Under the pieces are notes generated by a model. It was given only the letters and a program-made list of their open reading frames with translations. It was not told where the DNA came from and made no database searches. A stretch of 64,000 nt of DNA, taken from assembly GCF_045037415.1 (NCBI RefSeq), contig NZ_CP173438.1; one strand, given 5' to 3'. Position numbers and translations under genes: made by a program. The stretch is from Escherichia coli. GTDB lineage: Bacteria; Pseudomonadota; Gammaproteobacteria; Enterobacterales; Enterobacteriaceae. Shown here in pieces: positions 54,765 to 57,380 of the stretch (within the stretch, counting starts at the first letter, position 1; each line of letters starts with the position of its first letter).

Positions 54765-55643
54765 TTACGCTTGCAGCTCCAGCCCGGCCAGCCGCCGCCA
54801 GTAGCCGTTACAGTCGCTGTTTGCCGTCAACGGTAGTGGCGCAGCGCCATTTTCATTAGCGCGGAAGGCATCGAGCATTGCGAAAGTGTCAGTACCCTGC
54901 GGTGACAGGCGGACCACATCGACCAGCCCCTGCATGGATGCCAGCTCGTTACCGAGGTTGTAAACGTAGCCGCTCATGGTCTGAATGCCGTTGAGTACAA
55001 ACACTTGTTGGTTTTCCTGCGACAGTACGTTGCGCCCGTTCGGATACTTAATGCAGCAGGTTTCACACTCATCTTTCGGGCGGTCTTCCGAACGCGCGGT
55101 AAAGCAGCGTGCGGAGTAGGCCAGCGGTAGATGACCGTAGCTCAGGACTTCCACTTCAAACTGGTTGCGAATGCCCAACTCATCGCACTGATTAAGCAGA
55201 TTCACCAGCCAGTCGCGGGAAAGCTCCACCGGCATACACCAGCGCATCATGCCCTGTTTAAGCAATATTTTCAGCGTCACCGCGTTGTAGCAGTTCAGCG
55301 CGTGCCCGGCGACGAACGGCAGTTTGCGTTCAGCGCACATATTCACCACGCCGAGATCGCTGGCTTCAATCAGAAACTCACCGTTCTCAACATAGCGTTT
55401 CAGTTCGCCCAGTTCAGAGGATGCCTGCACCAGCGCCAGCGTGGAGAGCACAATCTGCTTACCACTTCCGGCGAGTGATTTTGCCATCTCCAGCCAGTCG
55501 CCAACTTTGGTTGCCCGGCGCTTGCTGCATACCGCTTCACCAAGATAAATCACGTCTGCGCTGCTGGCGGCGGCCTGCTGATAAAAGTCTTCCAGCGTCT
55601 CTTTTGGCCAGTACCATAGCACCGGCCCTAAGGAATATTTCAT
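54765..55643 (-). CDS. ubiV: U32-family protein UbiV (YhbV), O2-independent ubiquinone biosynthesis
   Basis: ORF 54765-55661 trimmed to MKYSLGPVLWYWPKETLEDF (292 aa). Cys-rich (CAERKL, CETCCIKYP). Confidence 0.8.
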   Translation of the reverse strand: MKYSLGPVLWYWPKETLEDFYQQAAASSADVIYLGEAVCSKRRATKVGDWLEMAKSLAGSGKQIVLSTLALVQASSELGELKRYVENGEFLIEASDLGVVNMCAERKLPFVAGHALNCYNAVTLKILLKQGMMRWCMPVELSRDWLVNLLNQCDELGIRNQFEVEVLSYGHLPLAYSARCFTARSEDRPKDECETCCIKYPNGRNVLSQENQQVFVLNGIQTMSGYVYNLGNELASMQGLVDVVRLSPQGTDTFAMLDAFRANENGAAPLPLTANSDCNGYWRRLAGLELQA

Positions 55644-55651
55644 TGCTTTTC

Positions 55652-56647
55652 TCACTGCCATTTACGGTGATACGCGCCAAGGGTAGTTTGCGTGCCTTCG
55701 GACATCGACCCGAGCGTCTCCATCCACGCGCTTTGCGGTACGAAGTTTTGCGGATCGGCCTTACAACGGTCGATAGCCTGACGCCAGACTTTCGCCACCT
55801 GGCTGACATACGCCGGGCTACGCTGGCGGCCTTCAATTTTCACCGAAGCAATATTCGCCGCCATTAACTCCGGCAGCAGTTCCAGGGTATTGAGACTGGT
55901 TGGTTCTTCCAGCGCGTGATAGCGCTCGCCGTCCACCAGATAACGCCCTTTACACAGCGTCGGATAACCTGCGTTTTCGCCGTCCTGATAACGGTCGATC
56001 AGCACTTCGTTCAGGCGGGATTCCAGCCCTTGCGGCGTTTGCTGCCAGCGCACGAAACGGGCCGGAGAACATGCCCCCACGGTGTTGGGCGATTCACCCG
56101 TCAGATACGACGACAGATAGCAACGGCCTTCCGACATAATGCACAGGCTGCCGAAAGCAAACACTTCCAGTGGTACAGGTGTGACCCGTGCCAGCTGTTT
56201 CACCTGATGAATCGACAACACGCGCGGCAGTACCACGCGGGCAACGTCAAAATGGCGATGATAAAAGTTAATCGCCTCTTCATTGGTCGCCGAAGCCTGC
56301 ACCGATACGTGGCGCTCAATATGCGGATAACGTTCGGCGGCGTACTCCAGCATGGCGAGGTCGGCGAGGATCAGCGCGTCGGCACCCAGTTGCGCCGCCA
56401 TATCCACGGCGTGCTGCCAACGGGCGTAACCGTCCGGATGCGCAAAAGTGTTAATCGCGATGTGAAGTTTGCGGCGATGTTGATGGACAAAACTCACCGC
56501 TTCCTGCAATTTTTTCTCGGTAAAGTTAAGGCCGGCGAAGTGACGGGCATTGGTATCATCTTTTAGCCCGATATAAACAGCATCTGCGCCGTTTTCGATG
56601 GCCGCCTTAAGCGCCGGGAGATTTCCGGCAGGGCAGAGCAGCTCCAT
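55652..56647 (-). CDS. ubiU: U32-family protein UbiU (YhbU), O2-independent ubiquinone biosynthesis
   Basis: ORF 55652-56674 trimmed to MELLCPAGNLPALKAAIENGADAVYIG (331 aa). Confidence 0.85.
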   Translation of the reverse strand: MELLCPAGNLPALKAAIENGADAVYIGLKDDTNARHFAGLNFTEKKLQEAVSFVHQHRRKLHIAINTFAHPDGYARWQHAVDMAAQLGADALILADLAMLEYAAERYPHIERHVSVQASATNEEAINFYHRHFDVARVVLPRVLSIHQVKQLARVTPVPLEVFAFGSLCIMSEGRCYLSSYLTGESPNTVGACSPARFVRWQQTPQGLESRLNEVLIDRYQDGENAGYPTLCKGRYLVDGERYHALEEPTSLNTLELLPELMAANIASVKIEGRQRSPAYVSQVAKVWRQAIDRCKADPQNFVPQSAWMETLGSMSEGTQTTLGAYHRKWQ

Positions 56648-56855
56648 AATTTTTCCTGAAGGTTGCGCTATCAAAACGCAAAAATGTTAACGAACTGGGA
56701 TTTTAGTTAACCTTGCTGCGACAATTTTTGATTTAAGGCAGTTAAAGTTGTATTGGTGGTAGCAGCAATTTCATATGGAATTGTTGATTTATACCGCTAT
56801 GTTATTTTTCTGATATGGCAAAATAGGATGATTGTTGAAACAGGGAGTAAAACTC

Positions 56856-57380
56856 GTGTTGGATAAACTGCGTTCCCGTATTGTGCATTTGGGGCCATCT
56901 CTGTTGAGTGTACCGGTAAAACTGACGCCATTTGCGCTAAAACGCCAGGTTCTTGAGCAGGTCTTAAGCTGGCAATTCCGTCAGGCGCTGGATGATGGCG
57001 AGCTGGAGTTTCTTGAAGGTCGCTGGTTAAGTATTCATGTGCGTGATATTGACCTGCAATGGTTTACCTCGGTGGTGAATGGCAAACTGGTCGTTAGCCA
57101 GAACGCGCAAGCTGATGTGAGTTTTAGTGCCGACGCCAGCGATCTGCTGATGATTGCGGCGCGTAAACAAGATCCGGATACGCTCTTCTTCCAGCGTCGG
57201 CTGGTGATTGAAGGCGATACGGAGCTGGGGCTGTATGTGAAAAACCTGATGGACGCCATTGAACTGGAGCAAATGCCGAAAGCCTTACGCATGATGCTGC
57301 TGCAACTGGCGGATTTTGTTGAGGCGGGAATGAAAACCGCGCCTGAAACCAAACAGACATCGGTAGGTGAACCATGCTAA
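56856..57380 (+). CDS. ubiT: SCP2-domain lipid-binding protein UbiT (YhbT)
   Basis: ORF 56832-57380; start placed at the GTG (56856) giving (M)LDKLRSRIVHLGPSLLSVPVKL, 174 aa. Divergent from ubiU. Confidence 0.8.
   Translation: MLDKLRSRIVHLGPSLLSVPVKLTPFALKRQVLEQVLSWQFRQALDDGELEFLEGRWLSIHVRDIDLQWFTSVVNGKLVVSQNAQADVSFSADASDLLMIAARKQDPDTLFFQRRLVIEGDTELGLYVKNLMDAIELEQMPKALRMMLLQLADFVEAGMKTAPETKQTSVGEPC

Follow-up and report, generated by a model that had tools for sequence, protein, structure and literature searches.

The ubiUV and divergent ubiT-yhbS operons of Escherichia coli and the fine-scale conservation of their shared promoter region

The locus lies at positions 54765-57380 of the 64,000-nt stretch of Escherichia coli DNA that was analysed (the window) and is almost certainly the E. 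coli ubiUV operon facing the divergent ubiT-yhbS operon, that is, the O2-independent branch of ubiquinone-8 biosynthesis. Through this locus, facultative anaerobes can produce ubiquinone in the absence of O2, for use in respiration on nitrate, in the synthesis of pyrimidines and in a smooth return to air. It is already covered by the E. coli K-12 literature, to which the window contributes no further gene, variant or regulatory element; since the FNR control sites and the prephenate donor are published, the finding is correct but ordinary. The window is of marginal value solely for how its promoter region is conserved at fine scale. Within E. coli, the intergenic DNA has changed far less than the genes on either side of it. 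The non-consensus halves of its two Fnr sites are kept across genera, and the distance between these sites varies in steps of about 10 bp. The genes were called from the open reading frame (ORF) listing and the RefSeq annotation of an E. coli chromosome that is 100% identical here, as follows.

54765-55643, minus strand: ubiV (yhbV), 292 aa; ORF listing and RefSeq annotation
55652-56647, minus strand: ubiU (yhbU), 331 aa, first gene of the ubiUV operon; ORF listing and annotation
56648-56855: divergent regulatory region, 208 nt, containing the promoters ubiUVp, ubiTp1 and ubiTp2
56856-57380, plus strand: ubiT (yhbT), 174 aa, GTG start; annotation
57374-57877, plus strand: yhbS, GNAT acetyltransferase; annotation

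The limits of the locus run exactly from the ubiV stop to the ubiT stop, and the 208 nt that the earlier note had counted between the divergent genes are exact. ubiU and ubiV are separated by 8 nt, ubiT and yhbS overlap by 7 nt, and a Shine-Dalgarno sequence (AGGGAG) is found 8 nt upstream of ubiT. RT-PCR has shown that yhbS is co-transcribed with ubiT, and phenotypes give yhbS no reported part in ubiquinone synthesis (PMC10470549). The locus is carried by 5424 of the 5426 complete E. coli genomes and is 100% identical to annotated E. coli chromosomes. A search with a degenerate DNA pattern for the N-terminus of UbiU yielded 120 loci, and in the loci retrieved the ubiU-ubiV-ubiT linkage is kept across Enterobacterales, Vibrio and Shewanella.

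The identity of the three proteins, which the earlier note had named as UbiV, UbiU and UbiT of the anaerobic ubiquinone pathway, is established here by NCBIfam equivalog models, with which the RefSeq names agree. UbiU matches NF047963 over residues 1-331 of 331 (559.9 bits, cut-off 440), UbiV matches NF047965 (363.7 bits, cut-off 275) as well as PRK15447 (441.4 bits), and UbiT matches NF047962 (153.6 bits, cut-off 46.9). The description of yhbV and yhbU as a tandem pair of Cys-rich U32 proteins also stands: the Pfam domain Peptidase_U32 is present in UbiU (E=1.4e-67) and in UbiV, which contain 6 and 10 cysteines, respectively. So does that of yhbT as a divergent SCP2 gene, since UbiT carries the Pfam SCP2 domain (1.1e-19) on the plus strand, opposite to ubiU on the minus strand. 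A PDB sequence search returned SCP2 structures for UbiT, e.g. 1c44, and zero matches for UbiU and UbiV, indicating that no sequence relative of these two has a solved structure.

The Fe-S ligand cysteines, whose alignment had been proposed as a check, are all there. In UbiU, C169, C176, C193 and C232 (spacing CX6CX16CX38C) are invariant in 97-101 orthologues, and in UbiV, C39, C180, C193 and C197 (spacing CXnCX12CX3C) are invariant in 77-89 orthologues; overall, the sample comprised 77-101 orthologues of 42-99% identity. Cysteines that are not ligands vary among orthologues, including the six others of UbiV (C103, C118, C136, C153, C196 and C278). The same eight ligand residues were proven by mutagenesis to hold the [4Fe-4S] clusters of UbiU and UbiV (PMC6747719). 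The two proteins give a marginal BLASTP match to each other (E=0.024) that pairs UbiU C176 with UbiV C180, in agreement with the published remark that the first UbiV ligand lies elsewhere (C39). Under the older annotation, yhbU and yhbV would be U32 collagenase-like peptidases that lie next to an SCP2 gene only incidentally, and both the name of the Pfam family and the RefSeq label of ubiV ("U32 family peptidase") still point that way. The chance that this is correct is negligible: the curated equivalog models call UbiU and UbiV, their linkage to ubiT is kept from Enterobacterales to Vibrio and Shewanella, the U32 members TrhP and RlhA are likewise prephenate-dependent hydroxylation factors, and the hydroxylation role comes from published genetics, Fe-S biochemistry and ubiquinone quantification (PMC6747719, PMC10470549). 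The peptidase annotation is in fact already refuted in the literature by ΔubiU and ΔubiV strains, which lose UQ8 under anaerobic conditions, and by Cys-to-Ala variants; for K-12, the loss upon deletion is reported in PMC10470549.

The system has been described in K-12 by Pelosi et al. (2019, mBio), Arias-Cartin et al. (2023, mBio) and Kazemzadeh Ferizhendi et al. (2024, PNAS). Published experiments in that strain have shown that expression depends on Fnr and what mutations of F1 and F2 do to it, which cysteines bind the Fe-S clusters, that UbiU and UbiV form a heterodimer and that the oxygen comes from prephenate; the locus in the window would work in the same way. UbiU and UbiV would form a heterodimer, as published for K-12 (PMC6747719), with one [4Fe-4S] cluster held in each by four cysteines, and would carry out three ring hydroxylations (C5, C1 and C6) of octaprenylphenol-derived intermediates. 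The oxygen atom for these hydroxylations would come from prephenate and not from O2, as established by genetics and 18O labelling (PNAS 2024, PMC10990095). This is the first case of an organic oxygen donor in a hydroxylation, already published for K-12, so that the earlier description of the donor as only partly resolved is outdated rather than wrong. UbiT would present the hydrophobic intermediates through its lipid-binding SCP2 domain, as the anaerobic counterpart of UbiJ, and would also ease the switch from anaerobic to aerobic conditions. Transcription would be set by Fnr acting on two asymmetric sites in the 208-nt region: F1 would drive ubiUVp leftwards from a class II-type position at about -42, F2 would drive ubiTp2 rightwards from about -40, and the upstream ubiTp1 would provide basal Fnr-independent expression of ubiT in air. 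The elements of the intergenic region are listed below; the -10 hexamers are putative assignments.

56685-56690, plus strand: TGTTAA, directly downstream of the ubiUVp transcription start site (TSS), near-invariant in 22 Enterobacteriaceae genera
56700-56705, minus strand: putative ubiUVp -10, TAAAAT; TSS at about 56692 from the published 36 nt to F1 (PMC10470549)
56728-56741, plus strand: Fnr site F1, TTGATTTAAGGCAG, activates ubiUVp, about -42.5 from the published TSS
56751-56756, plus strand: putative ubiTp1 -10, TATTGG, placed by geometry; TSS at about 56764-5 (PMC10470549)
56784-56797, plus strand: Fnr site F2, TTGATTTATACCGC, activates ubiTp2, about -40.5 from the TSS
56816-56824, plus strand: putative ubiTp2 extended -10, TGgCAAAAT; TSS at about 56831 from the distance in PMC10470549

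The earlier note had expected anaerobic control elements in this region, and two Fnr sites are indeed located there. F1 and F2 are exact matches to the sites that Arias-Cartin et al. mapped and mutated in K-12 on identical sequence (mBio 2023, PMC10470549), and the primers published in the same work match the window sequence. In that study, mutF1, mutF2 and ΔF2 were assayed as fusions and as chromosomal alleles; mutF1 abolished UbiV and mutF2 abolished the anaerobic induction of UbiT, while ubiTp1 was constitutive, ubiTp2 being driven by F2 and ubiUV by F1 (PMC10470549). The anaerobic induction on which the earlier reading had been made to depend is thus published and Fnr-dependent (PMC10470549), and the view that the regulation is only partly resolved has, with the Fnr sites described, become outdated rather than wrong. 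A published ChIP study moreover places a category 1 Fnr peak at yhbUV, and O2 limitation has been reported to induce yhbUV in E. coli, Dickeya and Pectobacterium.

That the earlier note saw no convincing pair of FNR half-sites by eye is borne out: even the closest 14-mers depart from TTGAT-N4-ATCAA at 3 positions, and a palindromic FNR site was missed because no such site is there. Each of F1 and F2 combines a perfect TTGAT half with a degenerate second half, with 3 mismatches to the consensus. A consensus scan alone does not single them out, since the window contains 304 matches with at most 3 mismatches against 234 expected by chance; the pattern TTGAT-N6-CAG occurs 3 times against 2.2 expected. 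Being indistinguishable from chance by consensus, the two sites are assigned from the published experiments and from conservation. The F1-type pattern TTGAT-N6-CAG recurs in 67 of 77 divergent ubiU-ubiT intergenic regions (0.35 expected), in agreement with the 96% given for divergent architectures by a published survey in which FNR sites were found upstream of ubiTUV in 87% of 1566 loci (PMC11707229). F2 is kept across Enterobacteriaceae as TTGATTTA[CT][GA]CCGC. The non-consensus halves themselves are also kept across genera, as GGCAG (F1) and RCCGC (F2).

In the cross-genus footprint, the conserved blocks coincide exactly with F1, F2 and the three putative -10 elements. The ubiUVp -10 falls in the block GATTTTAGTTAACC, invariant in 22 genera, the ubiTp1 -10 in the conserved block CGTATTGRT, and the ubiTp2 extended -10 in the conserved block TGGCAnAAT. 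Judged from the sequence, ubiTp1 would have as its -35 the TTGATT that forms the left half of F1, 17 bp away from the -10. A generic sigma-70 scan gave a sole weak match, on the minus strand at 56674-56646, which corresponds to no published promoter. By eye, neither the spacing nor the bases of the conserved GGCAG region appear to fit a sigma-54 or an IHF reading.

Within E. coli, the intergenic region is nearly frozen. Its GC content is 34%, against 52% for the window, and over positions 56600-56900 every one of the 5424 E. coli genomes shows an identity of at least 99%. Among 8 diverse E. coli genomes, only 2 SNP columns are observed where 9.5-30 would be expected from flanking third-codon-position rates, and 56677-56855 is invariant, whereas in the genes on either side 5-15% of third codon positions are variable. 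An additional, undescribed function of the region (a second regulator site, an architectural constraint between Fnr molecules or between Fnr and RNA polymerase, or a small transcript) would explain a conservation that exceeds the apparent need of two 14-bp sites and three promoters. The invariance of 56677-56855 beside variable genes, the identity across 5424 genomes, the cross-genus conservation of GGCAG and RCCGC, and the clustering of the F1-F2 spacing at 56-57, 63-67, 76 and 84-85 bp (steps of about 10 bp, represented by few independent lineages) all favour it. We nevertheless consider such a function rather unlikely. Most of the 208 nt is already accounted for by three promoters, a pair of Fnr sites, two Shine-Dalgarno sequences and UP-like A/T tracts, and overlapping known elements may suffice, since the degenerate half of F2 lies on the ubiTp2 -35 region and the left half of F1 is the likely ubiTp1 -35. 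In addition, an Rfam search of the locus, intergenic region included, gave no RNA family match, the segment 56757-56779 differs between genera, and the spacing classes come from few lineages. In a related reading, which we likewise consider rather unlikely, the two divergent class II promoters could act as one phased nucleoprotein unit, or another factor could read the non-consensus halves, given that the asymmetric halves are as invariant as TTGAT across Enterobacterales, that the spacing changes in steps of about 10 bp and that a core of 180 nt is frozen. For instance, binding of Fnr to F1 could switch on ubiUVp while blocking the ubiTp1 -35, shifting ubiT transcription from P1 to P2. Neither a phased unit nor a second factor on these halves is described in the cited papers on the locus.

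The earlier note had proposed a scan for ArcA sites, and a major part for ArcA in directly controlling the divergent promoters, alone or with Fnr, was also weighed. The region contains a direct-repeat pair with 1 mismatch, TGTTATTTTTCTGATA, at 56800-56815 inside the ubiTp2 spacer, a pair with 2 mismatches at 56685-56700 across the ubiUVp start, and at 56685-56690 the cross-genus conserved TGTTAA, which resembles an ArcA half-repeat. These matches are weak, unenriched and unconserved: with at most 1 mismatch, 6 are found in the window against 2.8 expected, a number reached in 5 of 100 shuffles; the repeat at 56800 is not kept outside Escherichia; and at neither 11 nor 22 bp from the conserved TGTTAA is a partner repeat kept. 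The locus thus shows no arrangement of the kind expected for the ArcA regulon, namely at least two TGTTA-type direct repeats at 11-bp spacing that are conserved and ChIP-bound. Nor does the literature lend support, since yhbU and yhbT are absent from the main text and from part of the supplements of an ArcA ChIP study, and the 2023 paper on the regulation of the locus does not mention ArcA (PMC10470549). A main role for ArcA is rejected on these grounds as very improbable.

Compared with K-12 ubiUV/ubiT-yhbS (b3158, b3159, b3157), the locus has the same genes, order, orientation and Fe-S ligand cysteines. The intergenic DNA, including F1 and F2, and the UbiT protein are identical to those of MG1655; the differences amount to four conservative substitutions relative to the K-12 proteins used in the experiments (UbiV E19D and T26A, UbiU R79H and I190V) and about 2% synonymous nucleotide divergence, and the sequence comparison points to no functional difference. 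As in class II Fnr-activated promoters, with a site near -41.5, F1 and F2 lie about 40-43 bp upstream of published starts and have a perfect TTGAT half-site, but their second half is strongly degenerate (3 of 5 mismatches) yet conserved, and they serve divergent promoters back to back, 56 bp apart. TrhP/YegQ (tRNA ho5U34) and RlhA/YdcP (23S rRNA ho5C2501) share with UbiU and UbiV the U32 domain and a conserved four-Cys motif, and their chemistry is likewise O2-independent and prephenate-linked. Unlike UbiUV, they act on RNA bases and not on a prenylated phenol and have no UbiV-type partner or SCP2 factor; UbiU scores 164.5 bits against the TrhP model, far under its cut-off of 534. UbiJ, the aerobic SCP2 accessory factor, resembles UbiT in handling ubiquinone intermediates with its SCP2 domain. 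Finally, the flavin mono-oxygenases UbiI, UbiH and UbiF hydroxylate the same ring positions as UbiUV, but they are constitutive and use O2 and FAD, whereas UbiUV relies on Fe-S clusters and prephenate and is activated by Fnr.

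Over 54700-57450 (2751 nt), several RefSeq E. coli chromosomes match the window at 100% identity, and the annotation of an identical record gives the gene order deaD, mtr, yhbW, ubiV, ubiU and, divergently, ubiT, yhbS, yhbQ, yhbP, yhbO, yraR, yraQ, dolP. The features of the locus for O2-independent ubiquinone (UQ) synthesis are as follows:

54765-55643, minus strand: ubiV (yhbV), 292 aa
55652-56647, minus strand: ubiU (yhbU), 331 aa
56728-56741: Fnr site F1, verbatim match to the published site, unique in the window
56784-56797: Fnr site F2, verbatim match to the published site, unique in the window
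56856-57380, plus strand: ubiT (yhbT), 174 aa, GTG start
57374: start of yhbS, 7-nt overlap with ubiT

Longer ORFs called mechanically for ubiV (298 aa), ubiU (340 aa) and ubiT (182 aa, TTG start) do not begin at the annotated starts; the TTG opening the 182-aa ORF (56832) is at or adjoins the published transcription start of the ubiT promoter ubiTp2. yhbS shares a transcript with ubiT and has no part in UQ synthesis (PMC10470549). The locus was found in 5424 of 5426 complete genomes and is missing from two; one of the 5426 matched places is on a record labelled plasmid. Several strains, among them those of the E. coli comparison loci L006 and L009, have 125 bp inserted between yhbW and ubiV (window ~54757), and ubiV of L009 (strain SL112) has an internal 68-nt deletion (window 55289-55356) and is annotated as a frameshifted pseudogene. 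The mtr-yhbW spacer contains a REP-type palindromic element, gcctgatgcgcttcgcttatcaggcctac (53598-53640), which is also the source of a spurious 53-aa ORF. Elsewhere in the window, the Rfam matches at gathering threshold are all expected for such an E. coli region:

7591-7698, minus strand: ArcZ sRNA
29202-29323: greA leader
35976-36059 and 39843-39916: tRNAs
40008-40108: rimP leader
44807-44877: naRNA4
46390-46504: S15 leader
46734-46905, minus strand: SraG sRNA

The three proteins all score above the cut-offs of their NCBIfam equivalog models (UbiU, 559.9 bits for a cut-off of 440; UbiV, 363.7 for 275; UbiT, 153.6 for 46.9). Pfam assigns Peptidase_U32 to UbiU (E=1.4e-67) and UbiV (E=1.6e-9), which are only remote paralogues of each other (22% identity across 91 aa, E=0.024), and SCP2 to UbiT (E=1.1e-19). 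Solved SCP2 structures such as 1c44 match UbiT, and no sequence relative of UbiU or UbiV was found among solved structures. UbiT serves as the anaerobic counterpart to UbiJ and is required for uninterrupted UQ synthesis upon a shift to air. UbiU and UbiV form a heterodimer with one [4Fe-4S] cluster per protein, and the ligands were assigned by Cys-to-Ala mutagenesis, Fe/S quantification, and UV-visible and EPR spectroscopy as C169/C176/C193/C232 in UbiU and C39/C180/C193/C197 in UbiV (Pelosi et al. 2019, PMC6747719). All eight are present here, among cysteines at positions 5, 169, 176, 193, 232 and 295 of UbiU and 39, 103, 118, 136, 153, 180, 193, 196, 197 and 278 of UbiV. In about 120 loci from other species, collected by matching a degenerate DNA pattern of the UbiU N-terminus, the ligand cysteines are invariant in every orthologue covering the position (97-101 for UbiU, 77-89 for UbiV, at 42-99% identity); the earlier note had asked for such an alignment of the ligands. 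Non-ligand cysteines vary, 40 orthologues having Tyr in place of UbiU C295 and 54 having Ala in place of UbiV C103, for instance; UbiU C5 is also invariant but lies within the search pattern and is thus uninformative. The same pattern caught U32 genes of Veillonella (L023, L025, L080, L096) and of Clostridia MAGs (L112, L120), which are ~33-43% identical to UbiU with no UbiV or UbiT match nearby, and therefore presumably belong to other U32 subfamilies.

The intergenic stretch separating ubiU from ubiT (56648-56855) is exactly the 208 nt first reported, is AT-rich (GC 34% vs 52% in the window), and is identical to that of MG1655 over its entire length. It was proposed to hold the anaerobic control elements, with no convincing FNR half-site pair seen by eye. 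Both statements hold: the region has no palindromic FNR site, its best 14-mers having 3 mismatches to TTGAT-N4-ATCAA, and both published Fnr sites lie within it. At 3 mismatches this consensus gives 304 matches in the window vs 234 expected, so that a consensus scan cannot single out the Fnr sites. F1, TTGATTTAAGGCAG, is located 36 nt upstream of the start of ubiUVp, the ubiUV promoter (Arias-Cartin et al. 2023, PMC10470549), and F2, TTGATTTATACCGC, 33 nt upstream of ubiTp2 and 19 nt downstream of the other ubiT promoter, ubiTp1 (PMC10470549). Fusions of ubiUVp and ubiTp2 are activated by Fnr and that of ubiTp1 is not; mutation of F1 abolishes UbiV production, mutation or deletion of F2 abolishes the anaerobic induction of UbiT while keeping its aerobic basal level, and the two sites act independently (PMC10470549). 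In addition, yhbUV carries a Fnr ChIP peak classed as directly activated (PMC3688515) and is induced in E. coli, Dickeya and Pectobacterium when O2 is limiting (PMC3349551).

The primers published with these sites (PMC10470549) match the window sequence. From the published distances, transcription would start at about 56692 (ubiUVp), 56764-5 (ubiTp1) and 56831 (ubiTp2), which therefore places F1 near -42.5 and F2 near -40.5. Candidate -10 elements, as judged from sequence, are TAAAAT on the minus strand (56705-56700) for ubiUVp, TATTGG (56751-56) for ubiTp1 and an extended TGgCAAAAT (56816-24) for ubiTp2. The 8-mer TTGATTTA has just two copies in the 64-kb window, those of F1 and F2.

Within E. 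coli, conservation is much stronger in this intergenic region than in the coding DNA on either side. The 301 nt around it (56600-56900) show at least 99% identity in all 5424 genomes, whereas the whole locus reaches just 95-99% in 4858 of them. Across eight diverse genomes, SNP columns number ~5 per 100 nt in ubiV and ubiU, nearly all at third codon positions, and 1.9 per 100 nt in ubiT, while the 208 nt have two SNPs in total, both within the ubiU 5' UTR, and no variation in 56677-56855; set even against the low ubiT third-position rate, this scarcity has P=0.004. In E. coli strain EEC_W5 (L002, 3175-4030), an IS1 lies between F1 and F2 (~window 56773), just downstream of ubiTp1, and cuts ubiT off from the upstream control DNA.

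FNR sites have already been predicted upstream of ubiTUV in 87% of 1566 loci and 96% of divergent architectures (PMC11707229), so that only the fine details of conservation are additional here. Among the 77 divergent intergenic regions recovered, 67 contain TTGAT-N6-CAG (0.35 expected). F1 is kept with its non-consensus half, as TTGATTT[A/G]AGGCAG, in nearly all Enterobacterales, and Vibrio, Shewanella and Moritella have related forms ending in CAG; F2 is conserved in Enterobacteriaceae as TTGATTTA[CT][GA]CCGC. The non-consensus halves GGCAG (F1) and RCCGC (F2) are conserved across genera. A 22-genus alignment displays conserved blocks at F1, F2, the three putative -10 elements and both Shine-Dalgarno sequences, and variable stretches at 56757-56779 and in the ubiU leader. 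In that leader (window 56660-56684), many other Enterobacteriaceae have 10-40 extra nt, GC-rich and hairpin-like, that E. coli does not have. F1 lies 74 to 142 nt from the ubiU ATG but at a constant ~132 nt from the ubiT start. The F1-F2 spacing (56-57 bp in Escherichia and Serratia, 63-67 in most genera, 76 in two, 84-85 in Rahnella) hints at a preserved helical phase, the classes representing few independent events. Shewanella intergenic regions (L014, L019, L042, L064, L116 and others) are only ~148 nt long and contain just one FNR-like site, TTGATTTRAAACAG. It stands ~66 nt from the ATG of ubiU and ~84 nt from where ubiT starts, which suggests that both divergent promoters share it.

ArcA had also been put forward as a regulator to look for. 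The best ArcA-type direct-repeat pair, TGTTATTTTTCTGATA (56800-15), has 1 mismatch, a level matched 6 times in the window vs 2.8 expected, and is not conserved outside Escherichia. TGTTAA at 56685-90, just downstream of the ubiUVp start, resembles an ArcA half-repeat and is near-invariant across 22 Enterobacteriaceae genera, with no partner conserved 11 or 22 bp away. Since there is no conserved repeat pair, yhbU, yhbT and yhbV are unmentioned in the text and the possibly incomplete supplements of the ArcA ChIP study, and ArcA is unmentioned in the 2023 regulation paper (PMC10470549), ArcA control finds no support.

What remains curious is the strength of the constraint on the degenerate half-sites and on the intergenic core as a whole. 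Known elements that overlap may account for it: F2 shares its right half with the ubiTp2 -35 region, and the left half of F1 is likely also the -35 of ubiTp1. Alternatively, the constraint could reflect an undescribed architectural or regulatory requirement.

Altogether, coordinates, equivalog scores and cysteine ligands bear out the earlier note in both its observation and its interpretation of the locus, and date its view that oxygen donor and regulation were only partly resolved. Prephenate supplies all three O atoms, as genetic experiments and labelling with C4-18O-shikimate established (Kazemzadeh Ferizhendi et al. 2024, PMC10990095), and the regulation was already answered by the experimental definition of F1 and F2 (PMC10470549). 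The system at this locus is already known and of textbook grade, with both questions answered in the literature.
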